A DNA stretch of 51,903 nucleotides, counting the filler, from Stramenopiles sp. TOSAG23-2 (lineage: Eukaryota): NCBI GenBank assembly GCA_900128395.1. It is 3 parts of 3 records of this genome, joined end to end, with 100 filler letters (N's around TTAATTAATTAA, not from the genome) between each part and the next. Parts side by side here need not be neighbours in the genome. Positions count along the whole stretch, not along the records: positions 17,366 to 34,604 come from LT649654.1; 2 more parts are not named here. One strand, written 5' to 3'. The notes under the pieces were generated by a model. The model was not told the origin of the DNA and made no database searches. It saw only the letters and a list, made by a program, of their open reading frames with translations. Every line of letters begins with the position of its first letter. Within the stretch, counting starts at the first letter, position 1. Positions 105 through 46,492 of this stretch are shown here, one piece after another. Position numbers and translations under genes: made by a program.

Positions 105-3077
105 ATGATACAATTTAAACATACGAATGTAATCATATTTGCATTTATTATTAATTTAACATGCTTTAATATAAATTTTCATTTTTTGAATTGTAGAAGA
201 AATGAAGCTCAAGATTTTTATTATGAAGGTGAATATTACAATACTAATAACAATAATGATGATAATAATAATAATAATAATAATAAAGCAATGAATAGTT
301 ATTGCTCAAATAAATATACTTATAAAGAGAATGGATTACTTGTACAAGCGTTTGGGGATCATGGTGGAGATGATTTAACATTTTTGGAAGATGATGATGA
401 TTATAGTAGTTTTGTTATGCCAGAGAAATTTGATTTTGATGTAACATTTCCATATAATTCTGGACAACTTGGCTTAAAAATATCAGATGTATCACATATC
501 GTCACTTCAATAAAAGACAACTATGCTGCAGATTTAACTGGTATGATAAAAGTTGGCGATCAACTAATTGCAATTAATGATATACAATTGCCACCACTAA
601 ATAATGGCAAGGATAGTAGTGATAGTAATAAGAACAACAAAAATAGGAATAATATTAATATCAATGAAAAATTAAAGTTTTTGGAGAAAAATAATCATAA
701 ACAATGGTTTTATTTACGTTTTCGTCCTGCAATATTTGAAAAAAGAACTAGGGCTGATTTGTATGATGTAAATGTAACAATAAAGCAAGGAGAGACATTG
801 GGTTTATTACTATCATCGAATCTTAAAATTCTTAAAGTGGAGCAACAGATAGGATGGAAAAAAACATTATCAGTTGAGAATGGCAATAGCAGCAATAATA
901 GTAGTAAGACAAATAATAATAATATTGCATCAAGCCATGCAAGTACCTTAACAACAACTAGTGGCAATGCTGCTAATTTAGTACCTGGGGATAAATTAAT
1001 CATGATTAACGATAGAAGCGTGGTGACAAAAAAATTAAATGATGTTTTGCCAATATTAAAAGGATTATCAACAACAACTATGAACAATGATCAGAATAAT
1101 CGCAAAAAAACGTTAAAACTACGTTTTCGTCCACCATTAGAGGTACGAGAACAACGAAAATTATTAAAAAAGTTAACTGATGAAAATGTAAATTATAATA
1201 ATCAAAACACATTTACAGTAACATTTGTAGATAAAGGTCCTGTTGGTATAAATTTCGATGAAAAATTAATTGTACAAAATTTTGGTTTACCAGATGGATA
1301 TGAAGTAGAAGATGATGCTACGGAGGAAGGAACGAAAATAGATTCAATTTTGTATTTTCCAGCAGAACGTAATGGGCATATCATAATAGGAGATCGTTTA
1401 ATTTCTGTTAATGGTGAGAAAATTACAACATTAAAAAAAGCCAATGAATTATTAAATGTACCAGTAAAATCAAAACGTTTACATTGCCGTGGGGGCGTGC
1501 ATTGTGGCATTGAAATTGTGCGCAATACACCAGATGTGCGAACAGTTACATTTGCTATTGGTAGGCGAGATAGACAAAATGTAAATGCAAATAATAATGA
1601 CAACATGGGCAAAATGTATAACAATGTTGATGATGGTACTTCTATGAACTTAATGCAACAACAAAATGATAATGAGAAAAGTATGTATAAGATGAATAAT
1701 AATAATAATAACAATGCAATGTTATTAGCGAAAACGGCAATCAATGCTAATGGCATGTCGGAGTCGGTCTTTTATGCAAAACGTGGTATTATTGATATAG
1801 TAGATTCGAAAAAAGTAGATATCGGTTCTTTTGATTTTACTGCTGCTTTATTTGGTGGTCCGTTATGGTGTAAACATCATGAGATTTATATACCAGATCC
1901 AGAAGATGCATGTGAGGAACTTGCTAATGAGAAATATTTAAGAAATAAATATGTCTTAGTAAAACGAGGACGTTGCTATTTTTCGACAAAAGCAATTCAT
2001 GCTCAGTATGCTGGTGCTGCAGGTTTAATTGTTGTCGACAGCGAGGAAAATAAAGGCAAATTACCAAAACGAATGCCAGGTGCAGAAAATGATCGTCACT
2101 TAATTAAGATTCCATCTATTATGATCTCTTACTTAGATGGACAAAAAATTATCAAAGCATTAAAAAAATTGAATCAACAAAGTGATAGTAACTATCGTAA
2201 AATCACTGATTTAACATTACACGGTACCTTACGAACAGAGGAACATGATCCAAAGAGTACGTGTAAATATACAAGTGATGACAGAGATGATGGCAATAAT
2301 GCTTATGGAAATCTTGCTTCTTCGTACGATCATACAAAGATGCCATCAGCATCAAATGCGTTGCATGAGAAAGGTGGTCATATTGAGATTTTAAATTCAA
2401 ATGGACAAGTTGTGAATAAGTATGAATATTTAACAGCAAAATTTGGCCAGAATTTGCTTTTAAAAGCTATGACAACAACAATAAAGGTTGCAAACCCTAA
2501 CAAGGCATGTAGTGATATCACAAATGATATTGATGGAAGTGTTGTTATCATACAACGTGGAACGTGCAGCTTAGTAGAAAAAATTGAAAGAGCAGAAAAA
2601 GCAGGTGCAGTAGCCGCTTTAATTATTAATAATAAAAATGGGTTGGAAAGAATTGAAACGTGGGATCAAAAATTTCGCCCGTATTATGTGAAATCAAAAC
2701 ATAATGTAACTATTTTAGCTGGAATGGTAACAAAACAAGCTGGTGTAGAACTGCTTGAAATGTTACATGACGTTTCCGCGAAGAAAAATATAATTGCACG
2801 GTTAATTTCAAATGGTGGACATGTGGAACAATGGAATCAATTGACAACGTTGTTTGATATTGGTAATTGGCCTAAAGATCCAAATGGACGGGCACAATTG
2901 TATTTAGAGTTTGCAAAAAAAAATAACCCAAATATTGAATATGGTAGTAATGAAAGGTTTCAATGTTTGCAATTGGCTCGTAAAATTGTTGAAACACATT
3001 ATGCTGGAATTAAATTGAGAGAAAAATTAATCAAAGAACGAGAGCAACGAGAGGCTGCAGCGAAGAATATGGAATAG
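105..3077 (+). CDS. Multi-PDZ + two PA (protease-associated) domain protein with C-terminal J-domain-like segment
   Basis: 990-aa ORF. Hydrophobic N-terminus. Three PDZ-like units (GQLGLKI..IKVGDQLIAIND; TLGLLL..PGDKLIMIND; GPVGINF..IGDRLISVNG). Two PA motifs (LVKRGRCYFSTKAIHAQYAGAAGLIVVD; IIQRGTCSLVEKIERAEKAGAVAALIIN). Confidence 0.8.
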   Translation: MIQFKHTNVIIFAFIINLTCFNINFHFLNCRRNEAQDFYYEGEYYNTNNNNDDNNNNNNNKAMNSYCSNKYTYKENGLLVQAFGDHGGDDLTFLEDDDDYSSFVMPEKFDFDVTFPYNSGQLGLKISDVSHIVTSIKDNYAADLTGMIKVGDQLIAINDIQLPPLNNGKDSSDSNKNNKNRNNININEKLKFLEKNNHKQWFYLRFRPAIFEKRTRADLYDVNVTIKQGETLGLLLSSNLKILKVEQQIGWKKTLSVENGNSSNNSSKTNNNNIASSHASTLTTTSGNAANLVPGDKLIMINDRSVVTKKLNDVLPILKGLSTTTMNNDQNNRKKTLKLRFRPPLEVREQRKLLKKLTDENVNYNNQNTFTVTFVDKGPVGINFDEKLIVQNFGLPDGYEVEDDATEEGTKIDSILYFPAERNGHIIIGDRLISVNGEKITTLKKANELLNVPVKSKRLHCRGGVHCGIEIVRNTPDVRTVTFAIGRRDRQNVNANNNDNMGKMYNNVDDGTSMNLMQQQNDNEKSMYKMNNNNNNNAMLLAKTAINANGMSESVFYAKRGIIDIVDSKKVDIGSFDFTAALFGGPLWCKHHEIYIPDPEDACEELANEKYLRNKYVLVKRGRCYFSTKAIHAQYAGAAGLIVVDSEENKGKLPKRMPGAENDRHLIKIPSIMISYLDGQKIIKALKKLNQQSDSNYRKITDLTLHGTLRTEEHDPKSTCKYTSDDRDDGNNAYGNLASSYDHTKMPSASNALHEKGGHIEILNSNGQVVNKYEYLTAKFGQNLLLKAMTTTIKVANPNKACSDITNDIDGSVVIIQRGTCSLVEKIERAEKAGAVAALIINNKNGLERIETWDQKFRPYYVKSKHNVTILAGMVTKQAGVELLEMLHDVSAKKNIIARLISNGGHVEQWNQLTTLFDIGNWPKDPNGRAQLYLEFAKKNNPNIEYGSNERFQCLQLARKIVETHYAGIKLREKLIKEREQREAAAKNME

Positions 3078-13522: not shown

Positions 13523-13749
13523 AATTTCAACATGTGATGTGTATTTTATGATATGAAAGAGTATCATTTGAGAATATCATGATGATATGGTTAAAATCTA
13601 TTTTTATCGAATTTTACGAACCTTCTCGTATAAAATAAAAAGGTGGAAAAAAACCTCTTTTCGAATATCATAATATCGTGTGCATGATGTGAGGGGTTTC
13701 TACTGTACACGCACGTACGTGTGTATATATTACGAAAGTTAGTTACCGA

Positions 13750-16688
13750 TTACTTTGATTGTTGTAATCTTTTCAACAATTCAAGCTGCTCTCGCAATAA
13801 TTTATTTTCTTCCTCTTTTATCCTAGCTTCTTCTTGTTGTTTTGCTTGTTCTTCTAATAATTTTTTAATTCGCTCATTTTCTTCCCTCAATGATTCCAAA
13901 CGTGATTTGTTACCGGCACTTCCAGTAGTTGCCCCACTAATATTCATGCTATTTTGTTGTTGTTGTTGTTGTTGTTGCTGCTGCTGCTGCTGTTGTAATG
14001 TGTATTGTTCCATTTTTTTTTTATAATCTTCTGCACTTAAACTAATTCCAAATGTATTACTAATATTGTTGCTAAAAGCATTTTGATTATTACTGGTAGC
14101 TGCACTAGTAGTTGTTGTTGTTGATGATGTCGTTGCCATCATATTATTACCTTGTTGTTGTTGTTGTTCATTCAATAATAAAGTCTTTTCATTTTGCAAA
14201 CGCTCCTGTTCTATTCTTTTTTGAAGCAATTGATCAATCAATGCCTTTTTCTGACTTAATTCTTGAGCTTGTTGCACTAAATCCTTTACCGATCGTTGAC
14301 GTTTAACGGACCTATTACTATCATCTGTTTTGGACGGCATCTTTTTCGAAGAAGATCCGCCATCAGTACTGGCAAAACCACTGCTACTGCTGTTGCTACT
14401 ACTACTATTATTGTTACTATAACTAGAATTGCGTTTCAATTGACTACTACTAGAATTTGAAGAAGAAGATTTTGGTGGTGGAGTAATTTCTCTTGATCGT
14501 TTACGCGTGGATTTAATCTTTGCTGCATCACATGCCCCGTAAAAGAAATCACCACGTTGTATATCGCCTTCAGCGCTAACAAATATACCACCTGATCCAT
14601 GGGGTACACCATCTAAATGTGGTCCTTCATACGTAGATCCATCTGTCCATACAATCTTTCCATGTCCTGATGGTGTTTGTCTGCTAGCAGTAGATGGTTT
14701 CGAACGATCTTTTTGATCTCGTAACCGAGTTGGATTCCATTGCCCTTCAACAAATCTACCATCTGTGTAAGTCATGGTACCTTGTCCTTTCATCGTTAAC
14801 AAATGGCCTTCAGACATATTACCGCAAAATTTTCTCCCATCTTTAAAATAATATGTTCCAACACCAGAACGTTTTCCTTCTTTGTATTTTCCAACATACG
14901 CACAACCATCTTTCCAGTGAAATTGTCCATAACCATGCAACTTATCTTCTTTCCATCCACCAGAGTACCATGAACCTTCGCTCCAAACAAATGTACCTTC
15001 ACCATGCCCGACATCATCTTCCCATCGACCATGATAATAAGATCCATTTTTATATTTCATTTTCCCTTCCCCACTTTTCTCCCCTTGGTGCCATTGTCCT
15101 TGATAAACATCTCCAGTACAGTTTCGATATTCACCATAACCTTCAGCTTTATCATCTTCCACTTGACCTCGATAATATGACCCGTCTTCTCCATGATATT
15201 CAACCCAACGTAAACCATCGCGTTGTAATCGATTTTCAGAAATTTCAAGTTTTTTTGGTGGTTCACGAAGCAATACATCTTCATCATCAACTACTGCTTT
15301 CGTATTGGATTTAGCGGCAGTAGCGGTAGTAGTTGTTGTTGATGATGATGATGAAGCATCTACTTCCATTGCTTCAGGTGGTGGTGGTGGTGGTGGCGGC
15401 GGTGGTGGTGGAGCTAAATCATCTTTTTTAGGCGACGGGGGAGTTTTTTTCATTGTAGATAAATCGACTGCAAGTTTATGATTGTGTTGATGTTCGTTAT
15501 CTTTTTCACTTTTTAACATTCCATTTTCAAACACACCTTCTTTTGTGACGTTTAACGATGCATCATATAATTTTCCAGTACCGTGTGGCACGCCATCAAT
15601 AAATTCACCATCATATGTTGATCCATTTTGCCATATAATTGTGCCAGAACCAGCTGGTTTTACATCAATGCTAACACTCGGTTTACTTTTATCTGGTTTC
15701 ATTCGTAATTTGGTACGATCCCACATTCCTTTCGCGATACGATTGTCTTTTGGATATTTCATAGTCCCTTGACCACTCATGCAAATTAAATCTGCCCTTG
15801 GCAATCCACCTTCAAATGTTCTACCATCTGGAAATGTATATACTCCATGTGCCATACGCTGTCCATTATTGTACATTCCTGTAAATGTAGCCCCATCTGG
15901 CCAGACATATGTGCCTGTGTGTTTACATATATATATATACATATACCCAAGGAAAAAAAGTAGGATAAATAGAGTTTGTTATATTATTATATGTTAGTCG
16001 CGCGTTAGTTGGTTTTGATCATGATTGTATATGTTAGGTAATACATACCTTCACCTTGTGCTTTGCCATTTTCATACAACCCAGTATGATAATGACCATC
16101 TTCCCAATGATATTCACCTTTACCATGCCCTTTTCCATCTTTCCAATTCCCTTTGAAACGAATCCTTCCTGTATTAGAGTATAATACACCAAAACCATTT
16201 CGTTCATCTAACGCATGCATACCTTTATAACATGAACCACTAGGCCAATGAAATTCACCTTCACCATGTCGCATATCACTTTTCCAGCTTCCTTTATACC
16301 ACGATCCATCTTCCATATGTAAGGTCCCTGTGCCATGTTTTAAATTGTCTTTGTATTGTCCTTTGTACGTTTCGCCATTTCCACTGTGATATTCACCACT
16401 TCCGTCACGTTTACCAAAGTTCCAGTTACCACGATACCAACTATCGTTAGCCCAATGATATTCACCTTCACCATGTCGTTTATTTTCATGCCAATTTCCT
16501 TTATACCATGCTAAGTTATCATCCCTTCGCCAAACTCCATATCCATGCTTCTTTTCCCCAAGCCAATTCCCTTCATAGGTTGAACCAGTATGATTATTAT
16601 CGCTATCAACACCAGAAAATGTTTTTTTACCGTGCCATTCTTTTTCTTTCGTATCCCCACCAACAATCCAACTTAAAAATGATGACAT
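13750..16688 (-). CDS. MORN-repeat protein, two exons (16688-16049 and 15914-13750), with low-complexity/poly-Q coiled C-terminus
   Basis: Many YxGxWxxGxxHGxG repeats. A GTATGT...CACAG intron at 16048-15915 joins the two ORFs in frame (QGE-G-TYVW). The first 60 nt are duplicated, giving an alternative ATG at 16748. Confidence 0.85.
15915..16048 (-). other. Spliceosomal GT-AG intron (134 nt)
   Basis: Minus strand gaag|gtatgt ... acacag|gcac. Removal restores the MORN repeat register. Confidence 0.85.
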
Positions 16689-17265
16689 TTTTTGCCATTC
16701 TTTTTCTTTTGTATCCCCACCAACAATCCAACTTAAAAATGATGACATTTTTATATGTCTATACTTTTCTTATTTTTGTTCTTCAACTTCCACAATAACT
16801 TTCACAATAATAATAAAAAAGAATGAATAATCACAACAACAAAACAAGACAGAAATTATATACCTATTGTTTGTAAAATCAGCATGTTTGTTTATTTCAT
16901 TTATTGTTTGTTTGATTGAATGAAATCAATAATATAACTAACTATTATTGTTATTATTTAATTACTCGAATAATAACTAAGAATCTCATCAACAAATTTT
17001 CACAACGTTTTTTCAAAAATCAACAATGTGGTCATGCTATAATGGTGTGTCAGTGCTATAAAGAGAACCCTATTTCGTAACCTGACCGGCGGCTGGCGCG
17101 AATCTCGGCGAAATATGCCTGGTTTTTATTTTATGATTATTATTCACGTCAGGTGTTAACCGGCCGATTTGCTCTGTCGAAAAAAAAGCAATTTATAAGC
17201 AAAGCTGTGTCCATGTTAGAATTCCCTGATAGCATAATTAGATTAATAAAAGTACGAGTTATTCA

Positions 17266-17364
17266 NNNNNNNNNNNNNNNNNNNNNNNNNNNNNNNNNNN
17301 NNNNNNNNNTTAATTAATTAANNNNNNNNNNNNNNNNNNNNNNNNNNNNNNNNNNNNNNNNNNN
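17266..17364. other. Artificial contig spacer
   Basis: N-run, TTAATTAATTAA (stops in all six frames), N-run. Confidence 0.97.
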
Positions 17365-17507
17365 NTATATACAGTAGTACATGATGGTGCAGTATATTTT
17401 ATAATTTTTTTACAATGATTGTATGAGGACAATGCAATGAATCTGTTCATCATAATGTGTAATTAATATCTGTGATAGGTACATGTGTGTGTGTGTGTGT
17501 GAATAGT

Positions 17508-18097
17508 AATAATATAACTGAAAGTGTGTGTTTCTGTTCTATTTGAATATTGTTTTAATCCCTGGTCGGTTTGATTTTTGATGAGAGAGGAAAATCCCAC
17601 GATAGACTTGATGATGATGGTGTGGGTGAATGAAGCATTGAGATGCAATCTGGCAATCCTGTGTCCTGTGGCAATGTAAATGTCATCAGATGAAAAATGA
17701 TGATTTAATTGTTTGCAAAGTCTAGCTTTATATGTACTCTTACTAGTATAGCAATATATATAGTCAGTAAATACTATGGCCGTAGCACACAACAATAATA
17801 TAACTGAAAGTGTGTGTTTCTGTTCTATTTGAATATTGTTTTAATCCCTCCTGGTCGGTTTGATGTTGTTTGAGATGATGACTTTAACTTGTTGCGATGA
17901 CAAGAGAGGGTGAGATGCAATCCAGCAATCTGGCAATCTGGCAATCTAAATCTGGCAATCCAGCAATCTGGCCAGCTGGCAATCCTGTGGCAATCCTGTG
18001 GCAATGTAAATGTCAGATGAAGATAGAATGATGATTTAATGTTTGCAAAGTCTAGGTTATATGTATACTTACATCATATCGTTATATATATCAGTCA
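17508..18097. repeat. Diverged ~290-bp tandem duplication with internal CTGGCAATC repeats
   Basis: aatataactgaaagtgtgtgtttctgttctatttg occurs at ~17510 and ~17796, and the following sequence is similar but has indels. (C)TGGCAATC units are amplified at 17917-18005. Confidence 0.8.
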
Positions 18098-18460
18098 TTT
18101 ATGATACCGGCATCGTGACAACCATCGATATTATTCGATTACGATACAAATGTAATATCCATCCACATACATCATATTTATTCGGTAAGAAAAGTACGCG
18201 ACTCATCATAGATATATAATTATACACAAATAGAAATAGAACATCACTACAAACATAGAGAGAGAGAGAGAGACAGAAAAAACAAATAACAAAACAGACA
18301 AGCATTATCAATAATACACGAGATAACATATACAGACATAAAACAACAACAAAATACAAGAATATAATATAATATATATACCATTTGTACACAAAGATTA
18401 TTATTATTTTTTTTTTTTAATCAGAAGAAACAGAACAAATATATTGAACCAATAACTAAG

Positions 18461-19006: not shown

Positions 19007-19181
19007 TTAAGCACAATGTGAATATCAATAAAACAATGTATATATGATGTAACTTTGTTGGTGTGCATATCATAATATGTAAAAACGATAACACGAGATA
19101 TATATATTATGTGTAAGAGAAAATTTTTATATATATGGTGTGCCAGCCCGTTCAACCAACGAGTGCAAGAAGGATAGAAAC

Positions 19182-19317
19182 CTACTCGTGCTTGTGGAGT
19201 ATTAGTTTGCAGACGTGCATTAGAGCTTCACTATATAGTAAGATAGACTGAATATATTTATTCTCGAAATTGAGTATCGAGCATATTATTTACCACATGA
19301 GAAGTAAAATTATTATA
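19182..19317 (+). ncRNA. Candidate structured RNA / dispersed element, copy A
   Basis: Homologous to the reverse complement of 32612-32747. Two hairpins with compensatory or wobble-preserving changes. Confidence 0.5.
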
Positions 19318-19327
19318 ACTTTTAGAT

Positions 19328-20060
19328 TTTTAACCATCATTTATATGGTGTGTATACTTGAAAGGGAGTATGATATTTACATATGATACGTATTAAAATT
19401 AATAAAGAATAAGTATTCATATCTTTTTCAATTAATATATAACTACTATATCATACTATCTATACTATATATATATATTCAATTTCTCTCTCCCTCCTCT
19501 CCCCTTTCTTTAACTCTCTCCTTGTCATAAAATATATATAATATATATAAATGTTTTAACTTAACTTTTGACGTTTCTTTTTTTGTGGCAATATACCATT
19601 TAACCATCATTTATATGGTGTGTATACTTGAAAGGGAGTATGATATTTACATACGTATTAAAATTAATAAAGAATAAGTATGATATTCATATCTTTTTCA
19701 ATTAATATATAACTACTATACTACTATCTATACTATATATATATATATTCAATTTCTTTCTCCCTCCTCTCCCCTTTCTTTAACTCTCTCCTTGTCATAA
19801 AATATATATATTAATATATAAATGTTTTAACTTAACTTTTGACGTTTCTTTTTTTGTGGCAATATACCTTCTAAAAATGTCCAATCTTTACCACTTTCAT
19901 TTGCAGTTTCATATGCATTACGAACATCTTCATATATATATAAATGTTTTAACTTAACTTTTGACGTTTCTTTTTTTGTGGCAATATACCTTCTAAAAAT
20001 GTCCAATCTTTACCACTTTCATTTGCAGTTTCATATGCATTACGAACATCTTCATATTGT
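19328..20060. repeat. Nested tandem duplications of the histone-fold gene 3' end and UTR
   Basis: ttaaccatcatttatatggtgtg occurs twice and aatgttttaacttaacttttgacgtttc three times, with small indels. Confidence 0.85.
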
Positions 20061-20728
20061 ATAACTTTACGTGTACTATTTTTTTTAGCTTCTTCAGCTG
20101 TTAAATATGCTAATTCAGTAACAAAACATTCAGCTGCTTTGGCGATTAAATATACAGCATCTGTTGTCGATTGTTTCACACTTTTATCAATTTTAACAAC
20201 ACGTTTAATGGAACCTTTTGGTATGGATAATTCTGCTGTAATTTTACTTAAAAATTCTGGAACAACAATTGGTACTTCTTCCTCAACTTCTTCCGGTTTT
20301 TCTTCTTTTTCTTCATCATCTTCACTATCGTCAAGAACTGCATTTATTGCTGCTTCGTCAGCATCTACAGTATTTTCCCCATTTTGCTCTTCAGGTTTCA
20401 CTTCTGTCGCATTGCCATCGGTTGTAGCAGCAGCAGTAGTGGTAGTAGTAGTAGTAGTTGTTGCTTCTGTATCTGCAGGAGCAGCATCTGTGGTATTATT
20501 ATCTTCTTTTGTAGTAGCCGCTATTGTTGTTGTATCTTCTGTTTTAATTTGTTCTGTTGTTGTTGTTTCCTCAGTAATAGGTTTATCTTCCTTCTTGGTA
20601 TTTTCAGTTTCTTCATTAGCGATAGTAGTAGTAGTAGTTGTTGTTGTTTCCTTGTTATCATCATCAACATCCATTGGTGTTGGAGCTGTAGTTGTATCAA
20701 CAGTTTCGTTTTCTGTAATTGCACTCAT
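19949..20728 (-). CDS. Histone-fold protein (CBFD/NF-Y family; POLE4/Dpb3/CHRAC-like) with acidic Thr-rich N-terminus
   Basis: IPKGSIKRVVKIDKSV...DAVYLIAKAAECFVTELA...RKVIQYEDV...FLEGILP. Confidence 0.85.
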   Translation of the reverse strand: MSAITENETVDTTTAPTPMDVDDDNKETTTTTTTTIANEETENTKKEDKPITEETTTTEQIKTEDTTTIAATTKEDNNTTDAAPADTEATTTTTTTTTAAATTDGNATEVKPEEQNGENTVDADEAAINAVLDDSEDDEEKEEKPEEVEEEVPIVVPEFLSKITAELSIPKGSIKRVVKIDKSVKQSTTDAVYLIAKAAECFVTELAYLTAEEAKKNSTRKVIQYEDVRNAYETANESGKDWTFLEGILPQKKKRQKLS

Positions 20729-21479
20729 GTTTAATAATGTAATTAAATTGTGTTATCTGTTTTGTATGTCTTATTACCTTTCTATTCAATTTATTATTAA
20801 TTCATTTCACACATACAATAATTATGGATTTGTGTGATGTGTAAATTTTATTAATATTAATAAATATGTGTATTTTATTACCTGGTGTGTTTTGTATGTC
20901 TTATTACCTTTCTATTCAATTTATTATTAATTCATTTCACACACATACAATAATTATGGATTTGTGTGATGTGTAAATTTTATTAATTTGAAAAAAAAAT
21001 ACATGATGATATGTGTATACCTGGTATTTTATTACCTGGTGTTGTGCTGGTATTAATAGCTCTAGGTGGTATATCTACTTGGTAAAAGAAGAAGCTGTGT
21101 GGTGGTGTTATTCTAGTCCAATGATGTGTTGGTGCTATTATTATAATTTAGTGATTATCACAAAGCTGGCCAGCTGGCCTGGTAATTTTATAAGCACAAC
21201 AATACACACCACCATGCAACCATGTGTATAAAATGTATTATAATAAATAATAGATAGGTGTCGACATATATATATAGTAGATGGAAACAGAGGCAAACGT
21301 ACATAGACAACAACAAACAAAACAGAACAAATCAAATACACAATGTCAGATGATGAAGATGAAGAATACATACCACAAAATGATGCAGATTTCACGAAAT
21401 TAATATATATATAGTAGATGGAAACAGAGGCAAACGTACATAGACAACAACAAACAAAACAGAACAAATCAAATACACA

Positions 21480-22421
21480 ATGTCAGATGATGAAGATGAA
21501 GAATACATACCACAAAATGATGCAGATTTCACGAAATTAACTACTGAAGATGCACAAGATGGTGATTTTTATATTTTAGGAACAAAACAATCCAATAAAC
21601 GGAAACTAAATAATAATACTATTGGTAATTCTGTGCTTGATGAAATTAAACAACGTAAACGTGCTAGAAAAGAAAAAGAACAAAACGACAGTGTTGATAG
21701 TTTATGGGCTGGTATGAATGAAACTAGTGGTAGCAGTAAATTAGATCCTTTAGCTGCACTCAATGCTGCAAATAAAAAGAAAAAGAAGAAGAAAAAGAAA
21801 GATAAGAAAAATAATGATAAAAAGAAAAAAAAAATTAAATTATCAAATTTATTACGTGGAATGTCCTCCAACAACAATAATACTAGTGCATTAGTATCTT
21901 CTTCTATATTATCAAGTAGTAATTCTTCTTCATCTACAACGACGACGACGACAACAAAGAAGAAGAATCATCAAGCAATATCACAAGCAGCATTAGCTGC
22001 TGCTAAAGCTGCAAAAAGTATGGAAAAAGTAACTGTTAAAGAAGTTGTCAAATTTGCAAATCAAGTCACAGAAATAACACGTACAGTGGAAGCTGGTACA
22101 GAAGCTGCTAATTCTAGAAATAATAATGATAAAATAAATAACAAAAACAACAAAGTAAATGCATTGGATATGATTATAGATGGTTTAAAAGGACCAAATA
22201 CAGTTAGTACAGTTGAAAAAACTAGTTTTGATTGGGAAAATTATAAAAATGAACATGGTATTACAGAAGATGTGGAGAAATATACTAAGAATGGTTATTT
22301 AACAAAACAAGATTTTTTAAACCGTGTTGATTTACGTCAATTTGAAATGGAGAAAAAAGAAAGAGAAAGACAACGTACTAAACGTGATGCTGAATTAGCA
22401 AGAAGTAAAAAAAGGAGATGA
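21480..22421 (+). CDS. CFDP1: Craniofacial development protein 1 / Swc5 (BCNT-C domain)
   Basis: MSDDEDEEYIP start. STVEKTSFDWENYK..GITEDVEKYTKNGYLTKQDFLNRVDLRQFEMEK. The start region is duplicated 137 nt upstream. Confidence 0.88.
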   Translation: MSDDEDEEYIPQNDADFTKLTTEDAQDGDFYILGTKQSNKRKLNNNTIGNSVLDEIKQRKRARKEKEQNDSVDSLWAGMNETSGSSKLDPLAALNAANKKKKKKKKKDKKNNDKKKKKIKLSNLLRGMSSNNNNTSALVSSSILSSSNSSSSTTTTTTTKKKNHQAISQAALAAAKAAKSMEKVTVKEVVKFANQVTEITRTVEAGTEAANSRNNNDKINNKNNKVNALDMIIDGLKGPNTVSTVEKTSFDWENYKNEHGITEDVEKYTKNGYLTKQDFLNRVDLRQFEMEKKERERQRTKRDAELARSKKRR

Positions 22422-22759: not shown

Positions 22760-24160
22760 TTATAATTTACCAACCATATTCTCCGGTACAACTGCTTTAT
22801 CAAATTCTTCACCTGTCATATAACCTAATGCAATAATTGCTTCTCGTAAAGTACTATTTTCATTATATGCTTTTTTTGCGACTTTACTTGCTTTATCATA
22901 ACCAATATATGGATTTAATGCAGTAACAAGCATCAATGAATTACGTAAATTTGTATCTAATTGTTCACGCCTTGGTAAAATACCTACAGCACAATTACGA
23001 TTAAATGCATTCATGGAATCTGCTAATAAACGACATGATTGCAATGCATTGAAAATCATAACTGGTTTGTAAACATTTAATTGAAAGTTACCTTGCGTAC
23101 CAGCTACTGATATAGTTGCATCATTACCTATAACTTGTGTACATACCATTGTCAATGCTTCACATTGTGTTGGATTTACTTTTCCTGGCATAATTGAACT
23201 ACCAGGTTCATTGCTTGGAATTTCTAATTCTTGCAAGCCACTACGTGGACCACTTGCTGACCAACGTATGTCATTCGCAATTTTCATTAAACTGATCGCA
23301 ACACGTTTCAATGCACTACTCATTTCTACCACGGCATCATGGGACGATAATGCTTCAAATTTATTTGGTGCAGTAACAAATGGTAATTTAGTAAATTTAG
23401 CAATTTCATTTGCAACCGTTGTTGCCCAATCTGGATGTGTATTTAATCCTGTACCAACTGCGGTACCACCTAATGCAACTTCATATAACATTGGCAATGC
23501 GTTGTTTATAGAACGTAATCCATTATCCAATTGTTGCACGTAACCAGAAAATTCTTGACCAACAGTTACAGGTGTTGCATCCATTAAATGTGTACGCCCA
23601 ATTTTAACAATATTCATAAATTCATTTGCTTTCTCATGAAAAGTTCCACGTAATGTTTTAATAGCTGGTATAACATGTTTGATCACACTAGTTGCTAATG
23701 ATATATGCATTGCTGTTGGAAAACTATCATTCGATGATTGTGACATATTGACATGATCGTTTGGATGTATAGGTGCTTTGCTACCACGTGGCGTTCCAGC
23801 AAAATCGCTACAACGATTGGAAATAACTTCATTTACATTCATATTTGTTTGCGTGCCAGAACCAGTTTGCCATACAACAAGGGGAAAATGTGTATCTAAT
23901 AATCCACCAATTACTTCATCAGCTGCTTTGGTAATTAAATCACACTTTTCTTTGTCTAATTTGCCAATTTTAAAATTTGCAAGTGCAGCACAACGTTTTA
24001 CAATGGCTTGTGCATGCACTACTTCCAACGGCATTTGTGTCGAACCACGTCCTATATCAAAATTTTCATACGATCGTTGTGTCTGTGCACCCCATAACTT
24101 GGAAGATTCCACTTTAATTTCTCCCATGGAATCATTTTCTGTACGATATGATGTTGCCAT
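22760..24160 (-). CDS. fumC: Fumarate hydratase, class II
   Basis: [48 protein letters not shown] and [11 protein letters not shown] signature. Confidence 0.97.
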
Positions 24161-24503
24161 TGTTTATTTTTTATTAATGTATTCTTTTGTTGTGAATTGT
24201 TTGTATTTTTTTAGTGTTTCTATTGGATTGTTGATAGATTTGTTAGTTAAAAAAAAACGGTGGGTTTTTGGTTGTACATTAACATAATATACTCACATAT
24301 ATATATACAAGTGTGTTCTATATACAGATATATTTTATGTTGGTATAATGACATATCTATGCATATCTTCTAATTATTTTCTGTGAAGAACAAATTTTTT
24401 TTATTTTTCTATAGAAAAAAATTTAATTTTCGTTTTAACACATAGTAAAATTATATTTACGTATATTACGCATAATATAAGGTTATAATTAATCAAAAAA
24501 TAT

Positions 24504-24659
24504 ATTAATAAAAAATAAACAATGGCAACATCATATCGTACAGAAAATGATTCCATGGGAGAAATTAAAGTGGAATCTTCCAAGTTATGGGGTGCACAGA
24601 CACAACGATCGTATGAAAATTTTGATATAGGACGTGGTTCGACACAAATGCCGTTGGAA
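24504..24659 (+). repeat. Inverted 156-bp copy of the fumarase 5' end (24023-24178)
   Basis: Reverse complement encoding [13 protein letters not shown]...QMPLE, then diverges. Confidence 0.92.
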
Positions 24660-30321: not shown

Positions 30322-32239
30322 ATGTATAAAAATAAACACCAAGCGGCAATACAAATTCAAAAAATATGGCGTGGTTATTACATAAGAGAAACATATATCA
30401 AAAAAATTAGACGCTTATATGAAAAAATTATATTGCAAATGGAAAATGTTTGTTGCTTACCAGAAGCACTTGTTGAAATTGGATGGAAGCATCGAAATAA
30501 ATTATGTCGTCCTAATTTATCAGCACCGTCATCACCTCCTAAGAAAAGTACTAAAAGTAATACGAACAATAATAATATAGAATCACAAACAACAACAACA
30601 ACAACAACAAAAAGTACTATATCGTCTGAACCAACAAAAAGTTTTGTTGTTAATAATACACAAACCGATGATATGGATAACATAACTGAAAAAAAAGAAG
30701 ACTCCGGACGTAATAATAATGAACAACTAGTAGAAGATAGTTATGAAATTGATAGTTTAAATAATGATGTTGAAAATTTAGAGGATGAACCTTCTGATAA
30801 TAGTTTTTTAATAATTGAAGATGGTGATGATTCAATAGATAATATATTTGAAAATAATCAAACTACAAATTGTGAAAACGAAAATAATAATAAGAAGAAT
30901 GAGAAGAAATATATAAATGAAGATGAGAAAAATTCAGTTGTAATTGTAGCAGAAGAAGTAATTACAACAGATGATGTGATACAAAAAGTGTCAACAAAAG
31001 ATGATAAAGAATGAGAAGAAATATATAAATGAAGATGAGAAAAATTCAGTTGTAATTGTAGCAGAAGAAGTAATTACAACAGATGATGTGATACAAAAAG
31101 TGTCAACAAAAGATGATAAAAAAGAGATTCATGATGATGATGATGATGATAATAGAAATAATAATACATCAATAAATGATGATGAAATTTCATTTGATAA
31201 TGTTGAAATTGAAGTTTCTATAATTAATAGTACATTTGATAATGAAGGAGAAACTACGTTGAGTGTAGACAATACTATACTTGATGAACTACAAGAAGAA
31301 GAAGAAGAAGCAAGTATTGTAGATGACAAGACGACAAATCATAACGAAGAGGAAGAAAAAAATCAACAAGAACAAGACGAAAACGGTGATGATGATGATG
31401 AAGAAATAGAAAATTCAATAAATTATGATGATAGTGAAATTGTACTATATATTGATGAAGATAGTTTAAGTAATAGCGACAATGATGAAAGTAATATAAT
31501 AGAAGATAGTAATCTCGATTTTAATATCAATGATAAGAATTTAGGTAATAATCGTGAAAGAAAGGAAATCAACGATAATAAAAGAACTATGGTTCATGAT
31601 GAAACTGTTGATACAGCATTATATGAACAATCTTTCATCGCTTTTTTAAAAGATATAAACGAACGTGTATCTCCTCAACCAAACGATGATAATAATAATA
31701 ATGATGATGATGATGATGATAATTCAAAAGGATTGAACGACAACAACAACAATGTCAACTCAAAAGGAATACTACTGACAGAAACTACCAATAGCAATGT
31801 GACAAATAATAATACAAAGAAAATTAAAGTAGCATCTATGCCGTGGAATAATGATTCGAGCAAACATATAAATAGTGATTCCAATAAAAAGATTGCTGCA
31901 CAGGATATATCAAAACCTAAAAGTAGTAATAATGATAATGAATTATCAAAAAAACAAATGACTGATGATGATCATGATGATGCTGCCGAGGAAGTAGTAA
32001 TGAAAAAAACAAAAGCTTTTGTCGAAAGTCCATCTAAATCGACGGCAACGACTACTTATTTACAACACGAGACTTCTACAAGTAAGCCTGCCAATAATGG
32101 TACAACTAGCAGCAAAAAATCACCAACTAGAACATCACCCCATCGGCCAACGAATATACATAGAAATGTAAAAATGTTTTCTGGTTCAAGATTTTTAAAA
32201 TTATTAAGCTCTCCAAAGATTATAGATGATGATGAATAA
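30322..32239 (+). CDS. IQ-motif protein (IQCC-like N-terminus) with long acidic low-complexity region; frameshifted by a 112-nt duplication
   Basis: AAIQIQKIWRGYYIR..YEKII..W....CRP. ORFs 30322-31014 and 31001-32239 join when the repeat at 30895/31007 is collapsed. Confidence 0.65.
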
Positions 32240-32611
32240 AATTGCATGTGTGTGTAAGAGAGAGAGAGGGGGCCCCGGCAGCGAATAAGATCTATTTTTA
32301 AAATTATTAAGCTCTCCAAAGATTATAGATGATGATGAATAAAATTGCGTGTGTGTGTAAGAGAGAGAGAGAGAGGGCCGGCAGCGAATAAGATCAACAA
32401 AAACAACACACGGTTTTTATTTTAAAAAGAATCTCAGATATTAAAAAATATGTGTATCATAAATATATAGCACTTCGTAGACAACACTTTTAATATATTA
32501 TACAAACTTCGTACGTCGTAAGAAGTATATATTGGTTTGTAACCAATATATATACATATATTTGGTTTAATTATCTTTTAAGTTATCATATCATATCATA
32601 TGCATATATGA

Positions 32612-32747
32612 TATAATAATTTTACACTTCCCGTGCTAAGTAATATGCTCAATACTCAATCGCAAGAATAATATTATATCCTAAGTATATATATAGTAAA
32701 GCTCTAATGCACCTCTCTGCAAACTAATACTCTACAAGCATGAGTAG
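32612..32747 (-). ncRNA. Candidate structured RNA / dispersed element, copy B
   Basis: Homologous to 19182-19317. Begins ~25 nt after the CWC25 stop codon. Confidence 0.5.
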
Positions 32748-32771: not shown

Positions 32772-33990
32772 TCACTGATACGAACTTTTACGACGAATAA
32801 ACTCGTTCCCTTTACCATCTTGATTATCCTCCATGTAACGTTTCCGTTTTCCAATAATATATGAAGTTGGACCTAATGATGCATCATTATCATTATTGTT
32901 GTCATATTTATTACTGATATTATTATTATTATCTGTTACCGATGATGTATTGCTTAGATATTGCAATCCAAAAGTTTTACCATTATTATTAGGAACGTTG
33001 CTACCGCGTTGATTTACATTGTTATTTGTATTTGCATTATTATTATTATTATTTACTAGTTGTATCATTGAATCATCATCATTTCCACTACTATCATCAC
33101 TATCACTACTTGATGAATCAAGTCTTTTATTTTTTTTATTTTGTTTCTTCAACTTTTTCTTTTCCTTTTTCCGTCTCTTCTTTTCTTTCTTTTTTTGAAT
33201 CATCATCATTTCCACTACTATCATCACTATCACTACTTGATGAATCAAGTCTTTTATTTTTTTTATTTTGTTTCTTCAACTTTTTCTTTTCCTTTTTCCG
33301 TCTCTTCTTTTCTTTCTTTTTTTCTTTCTTCTTTTTCTTTTCCTCTTTTCGTTTTTTCTTCATCTCCTTCTTTAATAGTTTCGCTTTTCTTTCTTCCATT
33401 TCTTTCTTCGCACGTTCACGTCTTAATTTTTCCATAATAACCGGGTTTGACAAGATCTCGCGACGTTTTGATTCTTTATTTGACATAATTGCAAATAATG
33501 GATCCTCATGTTTACGCCTAAAAGATTCGTTTTTTTCATTAATCGGTTTGTCTTGTATGAAGCGAGCGCCAGGCACAGCTTTTGTTGATGATCCAGCAGT
33601 AGAAGAGCCACGGCCATCCATGGTAGGAACCATGTCTTTTAACGTTTTTTGTTGTACTATTTCACTTATTGATTTTTTACCTAATAAAAATTGTTCTATT
33701 TCTTCTTTGTCATTTGGACCATTATTATTATTATTATCATCGTCATCATCTCGTTTATTTGCAGCATCATTATACATCCATTCCAATCGCCTCGATTGCA
33801 CTTTACCACCATTTGCCTCTTGCATTTTCCTATATTCCATTGCCTGCCGTTCCTCTTCTATTTGTTTTTTTAATTCTAACATTTTTTTCTCCTCATCTCG
33901 TTTTTCTTTTTCCACTCTAGCAACTTTTTGTACATTTTTTAAATTCTTCGGGTGCCAACTTTTCTTGGCTAAAAAGGACAATCCAGACAT
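32772..33990 (-). CDS. CWC25: Pre-mRNA splicing factor CWC25; frameshifted by a 127-nt duplication
   Basis: LSFLAKKSWHPKNLKN (CIR N-term), RLEWMY, EQFLLGK, HEDPLFAI and ILSNPV. Collapsing the repeat at 33069/33196 joins it to ORF 32772-33248. Confidence 0.88.
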
Positions 33991-39754: not shown

Positions 39755-40860
39755 AATGTAATAAAAACTATGTATATATATAAATACACAAACTATCCGT
39801 AAACTATATATATGGTATATATATATATGTACTATTTCTCTCTACCAACGATGTAACTAAATATATATATATTTATATTTGTAATGATGGATCTTCGTTA
39901 TTCATTTTTTATTATTATTTTTTTTTTGGATTTTGAAGAAACAACAACAGAAATCGTCCTTCTAATAGATCTAAACTGAAGTATAAAGTTCTGTAGTCTT
40001 ATATCCTTTGATGTGTGCATATACCGATTTTTCATCTGATGGGAGATCTCGGACTGTTCCCACTTTCTTATACTTGTTAGTATAATAACAGCACTACTAA
40101 CAAATATAAAATTTGGTGTTGTTGTGCCTTGAAAAAGAGAAAAATTTAGAAAAATTTAGAAAATTTCTTGTAAATTCCCTATTTCTTTTTTGGATTTATT
40201 GGATAACTTGGATACCTAGACTCCACCTGCCATGTAAATAGTAATAATATTGTAGCTTAAATACATATATTATAATTTTATATTCGGAAATTATTAGAAT
40301 TATGGCCAAACTGGATAAATAAATTGACACAATTGGCTAAGGCGGCTCTACTCTGTCTTTAAATATAAGTTAAGGTGCAAAAGCTACATCATGCTATCAA
40401 TGGCAAAAGCAGTTTAAAATATAATGCTGTGCCCATGTAATCCAGAAATTAATGGCCCATATTGCATATTAGCTTCTTTCCAGATTTCTAGAAAGCTGGA
40501 GAAAGCTCTGGAATAGATAGCATACAATACTGTAGACTACAAGTAATACAGTACAACAGAATGAACAAGAGCTGGGCAAGCGTAACACATCACCACAATC
40601 ATCACGGCAGAGTGATTTTTTGTTGGTAAAAAATATTATTATTTTTATGACCAATTTAAATTAATGGTATGTCCATGCTAATACCATACGACACAGATTG
40701 TGTTGCCTACATGTAAATCAAGTATATATGATGTATCAAGTAGTAGATGGATGTATATTGAAAGAGAGAGACACACACGGTAAGTGGATAATGTGAAAAA
40801 AGAATATCTCTACTGTTGTAGGCTAGAGCAAGACAATAATATAAATAAGATAAATACACA

Positions 40861-42315
40861 ATGAATATATTAGAAGCAAAACCAATGTCATTCATTACAG
40901 GATTAGGGCATTATCAAGGTATGGACGATAATGATGGTAATACTAATAGTGGTGGTGGTTCATCCCATAAAATTGTCGGTGGAGTTACGGAACACGTGTT
41001 ATGGGTTGTATTAACCATATTATATAGTTTGTTGTGTCTATTAGTTGTCGTGCAATTGTTAAGAATTATTGTCTATCGGCATAATGTCGTATCGTTCCAA
41101 GGTGGCTTCTTGTCATTAAGTTTGATATGGTCAGCGCTTCGCTTGCTCTTTTGGTTCAGTAATACGTTAGATTGGCCAGAATGGGTACAATTATTATGTT
41201 ATTGGTTGCCTGATTTATTACAGTTTGCTACGTTTGCTGATTTAGTTGTTTATTATTTAAAAATTGTTTACATACGACAATGGGACCGTATTCAATGCAA
41301 GGTATGGACTATATATATAACGGCGAATTTAACCGTCTCCGTCGCCTTGTCGGTGTGGCTTTATTTGTTTCAAATCGTATACAAAGGCCAAAGAGAGCGT
41401 GAAAATGACGTTGCATTTTATTATAGTATATTTTCTGGTATTACGTTTGGTGTATTAATGGTGTTTATTTCATATTATGGTTACAGGGTCTTTAAAATTA
41501 GATTGACCAGAAGAATGCGACTTCACCATCCATTTGCATCAACAACAGTTATGGTTGGTCTTACGTTTCTAGTTTTCATTGTATTTTTAACTCGTTGTAT
41601 TTATGGTTTTTTACAAGCATGTGGTGGCCATGCTATGTCAGATCCAGTTGGATCAAGACGCGAGCAATGGAAAACATTGCCACAAGCTGTTGATGTTGCA
41701 ACCTTTGTTCTATTAATACTATGGGAATTGTTGCCAACATTTGCGTTAGTTATGCTATTTCGACGTATACCAAAGACAAGTAATAATTTATGTACCATAT
41801 GGTGTGATAAAATAAGCGGTAGAAACAAAAGTTTAAATAATAGTTTTGATGAGACGTTTAATAATGCACGCACTGGCTTGTTAGAAAATGGAAATAATGG
41901 AAATTCGAAAAATAATTCATATGGTGCAAATGGTAGCCATAGCCATAGTGGTGATGATAAGACACATTTAAGAAATATGTCAACCATACCTTCCTCTGGC
42001 AATAGCAATGGATTTACATATAATGGCGGAGAATCGCCAAGAAATAAAAAATCAAATGCATCTTCGTTACTTGGTAGTGGCAACGATATATTTGATAATG
42101 AAAATCGTTACGATAGTGATGGTGAATCATCACCATATTCATTAAATACATATTCATTGACTCCGGGTACACCTTTGTTCTTGAATAATACATTAGGAGC
42201 TATGGGTGGACAATCTTTTAATGATAATGATAAACAAAATGAAACAATGCAACAAAATTTACAATCGCACACGTCTCCATATGATTTATTGCATGGAAAT
42301 TCTAGTCTTAGCTGA
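40861..42315 (+). CDS. 7-TM protein, GPR137/TOM1 (DUF1084)-like, copy 1
   Basis: Seven hydrophobic helices. SFQGGFL.L.LIWSALR, YWLPDLLQFATF, WELLPT..V..FR and FDNENRYDSD motifs. Confidence 0.85.
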   Translation: MNILEAKPMSFITGLGHYQGMDDNDGNTNSGGGSSHKIVGGVTEHVLWVVLTILYSLLCLLVVVQLLRIIVYRHNVVSFQGGFLSLSLIWSALRLLFWFSNTLDWPEWVQLLCYWLPDLLQFATFADLVVYYLKIVYIRQWDRIQCKVWTIYITANLTVSVALSVWLYLFQIVYKGQRERENDVAFYYSIFSGITFGVLMVFISYYGYRVFKIRLTRRMRLHHPFASTTVMVGLTFLVFIVFLTRCIYGFLQACGGHAMSDPVGSRREQWKTLPQAVDVATFVLLILWELLPTFALVMLFRRIPKTSNNLCTIWCDKISGRNKSLNNSFDETFNNARTGLLENGNNGNSKNNSYGANGSHSHSGDDKTHLRNMSTIPSSGNSNGFTYNGGESPRNKKSNASSLLGSGNDIFDNENRYDSDGESSPYSLNTYSLTPGTPLFLNNTLGAMGGQSFNDNDKQNETMQQNLQSHTSPYDLLHGNSSLS

Positions 42316-42780
42316 AGAATATGCGTGGGATATATGGAGCGAAAGAGTATTTATATTAATTTAAAATATTATTTTTTTTTCAAGTACATATCATATTAAT
42401 ATGTTTTATAAAATTAATGACGGGTGTTTAAAATAATTTAATTTACGCATAATGTGTTTAAAATATACGACCCGTCGTACGAATTCGTACGTACATAAAT
42501 ATTGAAATACGAACCGCAGGGGTCGTACATATATGTGCCATAATATATAATAATTGAATAAATACTCTCGTACGTCTCGTCGAACGAATTCAGTATTAAA
42601 AAAAGAGACATCTCTCTACCCCAGTAAACTTTCTATATTATACTTCGTATAGTACACGCGTGTATAATATTTTTATATTTTTTTAGAATATATTTTTTTT
42701 ATGCTTTATATAAAATAAAATATGCATAAAAGTTTGAAAAACACACACGCGCACACACACACACACACACACCACTTAAT

Positions 42781-44353
42781 CTATGCACCTGTAAATGCTG
42801 CATTACTACTACTCTCACTATTTTCATCCTTGGTCATTTGTCTTTCCATTTCCTTTGAAACTACATCTGTAAATCGTAAGAAATCACCAATTCTTATTCC
42901 TTCAGAATTGTCATCCGATGGATCGAAACGTTCTGTCGCACGCTTTATAATCTCTTCACTACTACCTAATCGTGTTGCAAAATCTGCTCCTTTTGGCAAT
43001 GCATTTTCTTTACCCCATGTTAAACGAATATCTTCTCTCCATGTCTCCCACTGATCATGCCATTTAGATGTGCCTTCATCAAAATGATTCAACATACCCG
43101 ATTGGATTTTAATACGCTTAACTTCCATTTCATTATCATGTTTTGCAACTGGTTGCTTTAGTTTATTTAGTTCTTCTTCCCCTTCTTTTGGTAAATCATA
43201 ATCCCTTTCAGTCGCTTGCATTGCATATGCATTTTTCATTCCTTGCATTGATTCTAATATTGCCGCATGTAATATTCGTTTGATTTCAATACGCATCATC
43301 AACGCTTGCTTTTGCTTTGATGTCAATTTGATGGGATTAGGGGAATTTTCATATGCTTCTGAAAAATAATACAAATCCTCTTCCAAAGATGTAGGGTATT
43401 TTCGCAATAATGATTCTGCTCCATGTAACAAGGAGGAGAATAAGTTAAATTCATTTTCCCCATTAATCGGTTCAGCTGGGTTAATTTCTTTGAAAGCTTT
43501 TGTTATTTTTCCTGCTTCCTCTTTTCGTTTCTTATCACTTTCAAGTTTTGCCTTTAACTCTTCCGGCGATAATGTAGGCTGTTGATTTTCTTCTCCCGCA
43601 CCAGCAAGTTTGCCTAAAGCGGATTTTTTTAAAATATCTTGCAATAATTTATTCATATCATTTTTTGGTTCTCCAGCACTGTTTTAAAATATCTTGCAAT
43701 AATTTATTCATATCATTTTTTGGTTCTCCAGCACTGTCATCAGAATTACCTTGTCCAGTAAGAGCATCCATACCTGGTATTGCTTTTCCTAATGCTTGTT
43801 TTATAGCATCTGCAATTATTGCATTCATATCGCCTGCTGGTGGTGGTGGTGAATTTGGTGCCCCATTACCAGCAGCAGCAGTATGTGCACTTCCTGCGAC
43901 ATTTGGAGGCAGTGGTGGTGGCATTTGCATACCTGGTGGTGGTGTAACACCAGCTGGAAATTGCATACCGGGTGGTGGTGGAGGAAATTGACTGGGTGGA
44001 ACATTATCAGGCGTACCACATGATCCTGAATCTGGCAAAACATCTTTTCTTGTTAATTCACGTATTCTCATCCCCTCAATAAATCGTGGTGATGGTTGCC
44101 CATCCAATGCAACATGTGTTTGCATATCAGCTTCTAGTTGCTGCCGTTTTAATAATGCCATTTTATCGTTTAACAACGCATCTTCCTGCTCCGTAGCTTG
44201 ATCAAGACCTAGTCCAAATCCAACTGTTTCATATGCATTATTTGGTAAAACGAAACCATATGTGACTAATAAATCAGGATTTGTCATAATCCCATAACTT
44301 ATAAATATTTCTTCTCCAGCTTTATAATCATTATCTGCATATATTTTTAAGAA
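42781..44353 (-). pseudogene. 5'-truncated duplicate of the SET-domain gene
   Basis: Begins mid-SET domain at the duplication junction. An internal 55-nt duplication frameshifts it. Probably an assembly product. Confidence 0.7.
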
Positions 44354-44572
44354 GACCAATTTAAATTAATGGTATGTCCATACTAATTATTAAACATACG
44401 ACACACACATTGCCTACATGTAAATCAACAAGAAGTATTTATATATGTATCAAGTAGTAGATGGATGTATGTTGAAAGAGAGACACACACGGTAAAGTGG
44501 AATGTGAAAAAAGAGAATCTCTACTGTCTGTAGGCTAGAGCAAGACAATAATATAAATAAGATAAATACACA

Positions 44573-46027: not shown

Positions 46028-46492
46028 AGAATATGCGTGGGATATATGGAGCGAAAGAGTATTTATATTAATTTAAAATATTATTTTTTTTTCAAGTACA
46101 TATCATATTAATATGTTTTATAAAATTAATGACGGGTGTTTAAAATAATTTAATTTACGCATAATGTGTTTAAAATATACGACCCGTCGTACGAATTCGT
46201 ACGTACATAAATATTGAAATACGAACCGCAGGGGTCGTACATATATGTGCCATAATATATAATAATTGAATAAATACTCTCGTACGTCTCGTCGAACGAA
46301 TTCAGTATTAAAAAAAGAGACATCTCTCTACCCCAGTAAACTTTCTATATTATACTTCGTATAGTACACGCGTGTATAATATTTTTATATTTTTTTAGAA
46401 TATATTTTTTTTATGCTTTATATAAAATAAAATATGCATAAAAGTTTGAAAAACACACACGCGCACACACACACACACACACACCACTTAAT

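Follow-up and report, generated by a model that had tools for sequence, protein, structure and literature searches.

The window analysed here, a stretch of 51,903 nucleotides (filler included) from the assembly of Stramenopiles sp. TOSAG23-2, comes from the gene-dense genome, of about 30% GC, of a marine single-celled eukaryote. A run of N at 17266-17366 joins two contigs, and the two stretches considered below, copy A and copy B, both lie on the second. Each is located between convergent gene ends, at 19009 and 19949 for copy A and at 32239 and 32772 for copy B. A first reading, made from the sequence only, had described a dispersed element with two copies, at 19182-19317 and, on the opposite strand, at 32612-32747, folding into two hairpins with compensatory changes and placed in sense orientation downstream of the stop codon of a POLD4-like gene and of CWC25. 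With regard to these neighbours, CWC25 is supported by a Pfam match (E 2e-16), whereas the POLD4-like gene has no Pfam match at E 0.01. The sense position downstream of a stop is real for both copies, but both gaps are convergent and either orientation would give the same picture. Two dispersed look-alike stretches are indeed present at these positions, sharing 78% identity over 142 alignment columns (E 7e-26), and the described stems and substitutions are found in both; their boundaries, however, were misplaced, and the element does not consist of two copies.

Copy A occupies 19143-19341 on the plus strand, opening inside a coding remnant and closing about 25 nt past the end first proposed; its 5′ junction was set by alignment with longer copies. 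It is flanked on the left by a target-site duplication of 10-11 bp (19132-19142), found both by direct reading and in the junction scan described below (locus L001), the last one or two bases of which could be junction microhomology, and on the right by its counterpart at 19342-19352, read directly. The remnant at 19143-19177 is the 5′-truncated end of a retrotransposon ORF, about 11 codons followed by a TAG stop (19175-19177), and aligns with the ORF ends of loci L007 and L059. The stretch from 19178 to 19341, which contains the whole of 19182-19317, is a complete LINE 3′ UTR of what is called below the G-C subfamily. This assignment rests on the position of the UTR 3′ of the ORF stop in TOSAG23-2 copies and in 22 of 26 related loci, and on the common 3′ end. 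Within it, hairpin 1 (19181-19242, plus strand) comprises a basal helix, partly decayed in this copy, a 7-bp stem carrying the G-C/A-U pair (19196 with 19229) and an inner 4-bp stem, and hairpin 2 (19261-19303, plus strand) has a 2-nt insertion in its 3′ arm.

Copy B runs on the minus strand from 32747 to about 32564. It belongs to the A-U subfamily, consists of 3′ UTR only, and is interrupted by AT-rich insertions, both in the hinge and close to its 3′ end, which is degenerate. No target-site duplication is visible around it. In L040, a second version of the same locus, the sequence extends 58 bases further towards the 5′ end, and the start of copy B therefore looks like a later deletion. A possible remnant of the last 14 bases of the element lies at 13588-13601 on the minus strand, a weak candidate since an equally good match arises in 25 of 100 shuffles.

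The assembly (9,146 contigs) holds far more than these two stretches. A 23-letter pattern with at most two mismatches gave 251 matches in the TOSAG23-2 genome, 128 on one strand and 123 on the other, against none for the reversed control, so that the supposed pair belongs to a family of at least 251 members. DNA searches with the UTR returned 455 and 587 first-look candidates, 40 of each being scored. Going upstream, the number of candidate copies falls steeply: the UTR has hundreds, the adjoining 421 nt have 46, the 901 nt preceding these have 4 and the RT has 3. The ends were compared in 104 distinct fetched copies, a set biased towards well-preserved ones. Among them, 72 extend to a common 3′ motif located about 20-25 nt beyond the end first proposed, past which follows unrelated AT-rich sequence without poly(A). 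The 5′ ends, by comparison, scatter between -599 and +118 relative to the stop codon in the 97 copies with flank, the -599 end being that of the reference copy itself; 68 of these copies begin upstream of the stop, inside the ORF, and 29 begin within the UTR. Copies that agree at the 3′ end and not at the 5′ end are what target-primed reverse transcription (TPRT) is known to leave behind.

Target-site duplications had been singled out as a check, and they are found at copy A and in a minority of the family. A position-blind search was weak and was superseded by a scan anchored at the junctions, for which 72 copies with both flanks were available and 67 were retained after five tandem copies had been dropped. 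Repeats of at least 9 bp (9-14 bp) occur in 10 of these 67 copies, versus 2.1% of shuffled pairs, and repeats of at least 11 bp in 6 of the 67, versus 0.8%; two of the ten duplications are (TA)n, and the other 57 copies have no duplication of at least 9 bp at their junctions. Copies occur as close pairs in opposite orientation (L002:363-870 and L034:732-1250) or in tandem (L014, L054, L185 and L048). Copy junctions and small insertions abound in short AT-rich palindromic filler in which words containing CG recur, for example in L002, L038, L047 and L172 and at 32581-32612 of the window. This filler suggests templated or snap-back repair synthesis in the TOSAG23-2 genome.

The scattered 5′ ends bear on two other identities. 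The minimum-energy fold of copy B had prompted a reading as a MITE, CACTA or other terminal-inverted-repeat element, which was rejected: the ends are not fixed, on either side the sequence extends beyond the apparent inverted repeat, and of 79 aligned UTRs 31 have A-C at one pair of the long-range 5′-3′ helix and 58 are mismatched at another. The UTR alone might instead form a separate non-autonomous, SINE-like unit mobilised by the LINE, as the 29 copies beginning within it, several of them near the stop, could suggest. No single common 5′ end exists, however, and the cluster of ends near -9 falls where the subfamilies and the reference copy differ in sequence. A SINE proper was discarded because it would have a tRNA, 7SL or 5S head: what lies upstream is the LINE's own ORF, no foreign head was seen, and neither a tRNA scan, which found no tRNA-like gene in the window, nor Rfam gave a match. 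We therefore hold an independent SINE-like unit to be very improbable.

Longer copies run upstream into an ORF whose stop lies 4 nt before 19182, and related proteins of 361-437 aa are present in public protein sets. One of these relatives led to 40 metagenome loci, of which 26 with the ORF end were inspected: the UTR lies directly 3′ of the ORF stop in 22, and the other four end at a contig edge. One related contig, L126, carries in order and on one strand an RT, a thumb-like region, a Cys-rich knuckle and a C-terminal RLE-like domain; it is broken by stops and frameshifts and has no UTR in sense. The link to the UTR is provided by L190, an internally deleted copy from the TOSAG23-2 genome, in which an RT sharing 88-90% DNA identity with the one in L126 is joined directly to a UTR of 97% identity. 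This RT (P0098) has no Pfam match and its motifs are atypical. In the ESM Atlas, however, the clusters closest to it are RVT_1 (0.95). It also shares 35% identity with P0099, at 1,438 aa the longest sister-family protein, for which Pfam gives an RVT_1 match at E 1e-6, slightly short of the curated cut-off. Another RT fragment of the genome, L096, was discarded as a candidate, being only 26% identical to the family RT and not linked to the UTR.

The endonuclease assignment relies on motif order. After the Cys knuckle, conserved residues follow as H, D, D, K..Y and a G turn, and this order is kept in the 31%-identical sister ORF; by eye it agrees with the R2 RLE motifs RH, PD-(D/E), K..KY and RG.W, as given in PMC4838377. 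The RLE and C-terminal region has no Pfam match and no PDB sequence match, and PDB sequence searches in general gave no meaningful match, including to the solved R2 proteins. An AlphaFold model of the region reached a pLDDT of 47 and its fold search returned nothing, the model being too poor to count; ESM Atlas placed the C-terminal part among 30 unnamed clusters at 0.96, the nearest named one, zf-RVT at 0.88, serving as a lead only. No intact full-length copy was found in the 9,146 contigs of the assembly, and a search for longer relatives of P0003 found none, which is weak evidence. From these pieces, a complete element would consist of a single long ORF with RT, thumb, Cys knuckle and RLE. 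RNA contigs from four of four runs cover parts of the L126 RT and RLE regions with no piece spanning the element; they are silent on strand, ends and autonomy, DNA carry-over or read-through may account for them, and they are given no weight as evidence of activity.

In other respects, the genome houses several further RT-bearing sequences. A 5′-truncated sister RLE-LINE with an open frame of 898 codons (L191:2151-4847, plus strand), 31% identical over the C-terminal 419 residues, faces a copy of the first family in head-to-head orientation, and another sister-family fragment (L172:2116-2676, plus strand) adjoins a copy. The RT-like frames of L092-L096 and L099 are, judging by motif labels that we take as provisional, DIRS-like, LTR-like, another CRE-like fragment and telomerase-like. 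A distinct dispersed repeat of about 75 bp, with some 30 matches, often as inverted pairs 200-400 bp apart, was noticed at L096:327-402 (query 798-873, minus strand) and may represent the ends of a MITE.

Overall, we consider, with a probability of about 0.92, that this sequence represents the folded 3′ UTR of a non-LTR retrotransposon of the RLE type, the copies of which are mostly 5′-truncated. This reading is carried by the common 3′ end, the scattered 5′ ends, the ORF directly upstream, the link to an RT and the target-site duplications of a minority of copies. Of the three identities initially offered, the mobile element was right in kind, although it is not a small self-contained one, and the non-coding RNA gene was wrong; the third, a shared 3′ UTR element, is taken up below with the position of the copies. 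The element is of a known class, and the idea of a new RNA gene is dropped.

The fold needs to be weighed separately. Taken alone, copies A and B fold no better than shuffles on the element strand (z -0.48 and -0.79), and z-scores in the family reach -1.0 to -1.7 for the whole UTR and -2.17 for hairpin 2 alone (L059). We aligned 79 UTRs, 59 from the TOSAG23-2 genome and 20 from related contigs, after leaving out by eye two of 80 listed sequences as poorly bounded and adding two others. In this alignment, the two hairpins as first drawn pair in 97.1% of cells; with a basal helix formed by the first UTR bases and the hinge, the structure has 36 pairs and 96.7% of cells paired. Single-sequence folds give the helix in the same register in four of five copies and shifted in the fifth. 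The hinge, said earlier to diverge freely, is thus paired with the first UTR bases in most copies (94-98% of cells), the helix having decayed in the two copies of the window. The inner 4-bp stem, in the register first proposed, is broken in the most divergent subfamily, where a slipped register forms, and RNAalifold, run on the gappy alignment, recovered hairpin 2 and not hairpin 1.

Pairing-preserving changes between copies A and B are present as reported, but just one is two-sided, the rest being changes from G-C or A-U to G-U wobble. That one, the exchange of G-C for A-U in the 7-bp stem, is found as A-U in 56 rows of the alignment, G-C in 19, G-U in 4 and A-C in none. Because the G-C rows form a single supported branch, in a tree built with those columns included, the exchange is best taken as one subfamily event; copy A belongs to the G-C group and copy B to the A-U group. 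Cells changed on both sides number 27, more than in any of 500 shuffles, an excess that kinship alone can give. Counted by pairs, those altered on both sides (4 of 36) are no more numerous than in shuffles (266 of 500). A comparison of shared with private variants is more telling: those seen in at least five rows keep pairing in nine of nine cases and rarer ones in 15 of 55, the other 40 breaking stems. The difference holds in a stricter set from which two duplicate rows and, for hairpin 2, eleven misaligned rows were dropped (7 of 7 versus 14 of 45, Fisher p 0.0009), and at a threshold of three rows (12 of 18 versus 12 of 46, p 0.004), bearing in mind that the structure was derived from the same sequences and that a transition bias towards G-U was left in. 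The conserved fold first claimed thus finds some support in the shared variants of the sense strand; support is moderate, and we regard a selected two-hairpin fold, restricted to the sense strand of the element, as fairly probable.

The same data decide against an independent non-coding RNA family, such as an H/ACA RNA read from the opposite strand, for which the two-hairpin layout has about the right size. That reading requires the opposite strand to fold, and this strand gives z-scores of -0.44 and -0.11 for copies A and B and +0.60 in the family, no better than shuffles, while six of the nine common variants break its pairs. A scan of Rfam for a known family, one of the checks initially proposed, found no match at copy A or B, the two matches elsewhere in the window being chance hits to miRNAs (E 0.38 and 0.53), and the family runs to hundreds of copies, ragged at the 5′ end, that lead into an RT-RLE ORF. 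We give this alternative next to no weight.

With regard to genomic position, 21 further loci were classified out of 30 listed pattern matches, the other nine, mostly near contig ends, being left out. Fifteen lie in convergent gaps, two in tandem gaps, two upstream of a start or in an unclear position, and two are unresolved, gap orientation having been read by eye from lists of long ORFs. The background, counted from non-nested long ORFs with introns inflating the tandem class, is about 5 convergent gaps of 15 in the window and 5 of 25 in six other 10-kb stretches, and is put at about 25-33%; at a one-in-three background, the chance of 15 or more among 21 is near 4e-4, as computed by hand. 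Survival where no promoter or coding sequence was hit is the most likely cause of this position, possibly helped by an insertion preference, and selection against promoter insertions is the simplest explanation of the excess.

An element of the same origin might also actively target the transcription-termination zones between convergent genes, the cue being chromatin or RNA polymerase II and not a DNA sequence. The excess itself (15 of 21 versus 5 of 15 and 5 of 25) speaks for such targeting, as would a weak N-terminal PHD-like match in the sister-family protein (E 0.36-1.5); that match is not significant, however, purifying selection would yield the same pattern in a gene-dense genome where convergent gaps hold no promoter, and the genes compared are long ORFs taken by eye, with a tandem class inflated by introns. 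Active targeting is accordingly an unlikely alternative to passive survival of the retrotransposon copies. The Cys-rich N-terminal stretch of P0099 (residues 163-231) gives weak matches to PHD/IBR-type Pfam families (E 0.05-1.5), and a chromatin-reading finger there, if real, would bear on target choice. A bolder picture, in which marine protists harbour a divergent RLE-LINE lineage that dropped sequence-specific targets, homes to the gaps between convergent gene ends and selects its RNA by a compact two-hairpin tail, appears to us equally doubtful. If it held, convergent gaps would be a safe harbour set by transcription termination, and dead tails could enter host 3′ UTRs. Either way, the excess offers a testable case of selection versus targeting in a compact genome. 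Most RLE clades are sequence-specific, according to PMC4640811. Comparable data from fission yeasts differ between species: in PMC10085805, retrotransposons of S. pombe avoid convergent gaps and those of S. osmophilus are mildly enriched there (24% versus 15%).

The dead tails might also have been co-opted as a shared 3′ UTR signal of the host, acting on mRNA stability or termination. The copies are indeed concentrated around gene 3′ ends, no more than a few hundred bases away, and the stretch is present in 13 marine RNA runs, several of them polyA-selected. A precedent is found in the SIDERs, extinct retroposons derived from ingi, with a tested role in mRNA decay. Leishmania SIDER2 (PMC2943621, PMC5509151) likewise consists of short degenerate retroposon pieces in or near 3′ UTRs. 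The TOSAG23-2 copies, by contrast, are young, ragged in length and decay in a neutral-looking way: rare copy-specific variants mostly break stems (40 of 55), coding remnants of variable length are kept, and whichever way it points, a copy in a convergent gap is antisense to one of the flanking genes; the RNA contigs, moreover, cannot show strand or ends. A host signal is not needed to explain the sequence, and we find it improbable.

Returning to the retrotransposon, its RT and thumb motifs look CRE-like to us, and the element is probably CRE-like, the clade being judged from motif likeness. Its copies have unrelated AT-rich flanks and no poly(A) tail; in the absence of a fixed target and of poly(A), it is filed as CRE-like only. 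According to PMC12278014, members of the CRE clade (CRE1/2, SLACS and CZAR) resemble it in having a single ORF with RT and C-terminal RLE, a zinc-finger-like motif and target-site duplications of variable size, while trypanosomatid CRE occupies one site in spliced-leader genes and generally ends in poly(A). R2 (R2Bm) shares the order RT, thumb, linker, Cys-rich finger and RLE as well as a structured 3′ UTR, a small folded core of which is required for TPRT, as reported in PMC10499050. R2 is, however, specific for 28S rDNA, the TOSAG23-2 element has no detectable sequence match to solved R2 proteins, and its UTR of about 165 nt with two hairpins compares with 248 nt and at least 11 stems in R2Bm. 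PMC4640811 describes the HERO clade as comprising many non-specific elements, the four other RLE clades being mostly target-specific. By this description, HERO would resemble our element as a group of RLE elements with no fixed target. For the working of the UTR, an apt comparison is ZfL2, unrelated in sequence and belonging to the L2 elements, which are of the APE type. According to PMC4176376, this stringent zebrafish LINE has a protein that recognises the stem-loop of its 3′ tail, and in L2 elements the endonuclease precedes the RT.

By analogy with R2 and stringent LINEs, the RNA of the element would end in a folded tail by which its protein recognises its own RNA. The protein would nick AT-rich DNA with its RLE, and reverse transcription would start from the 3′ end by TPRT and usually halt after 50-500 nt, such early halts producing hundreds of dead tails; binding, nicking and present activity are what we infer from these analogues. 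The fold would be kept by selection on a few active source elements, inserted copies decaying afterwards. Since selection would act on few sources, differences between subfamilies would preserve pairing, and copies A and B would look compensated because they come from two subfamilies. The family thereby explains why pairs of copies mimic new structured RNAs in window-by-window scans. It also provides, for a very divergent RLE protein, a natural RNA tag of about 165 nt with subfamily variation, useful for comparing R2-like template recognition. Existing knowledge is little changed, folded 3′ UTRs and truncated tails being standard for LINEs; no description of the family was found within the limited library consulted.

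Finally, the window contains repeats of other kinds. A degenerate tandem repeat of about 260-300 bp, 71% identical, occupies 17508-18097, in the long upstream gap of the gene at 18368. Numerous sequences are duplicated head to tail, over 55-280 bp and in one case over 3.7 kb (16633-16752, 19329-19874, 19814-20064, 21266-21540, 30864-31127, 33068-33323 and 40640-48091, among others); they are 92-100% identical, several fall inside genes, and the L190 RT also carries one. They are possibly assembly joins. An inverted duplication of 165 bp (99%), at 24023-24187 and 24495-24659, repeats the start of a gene that is presumably fumarase-like.
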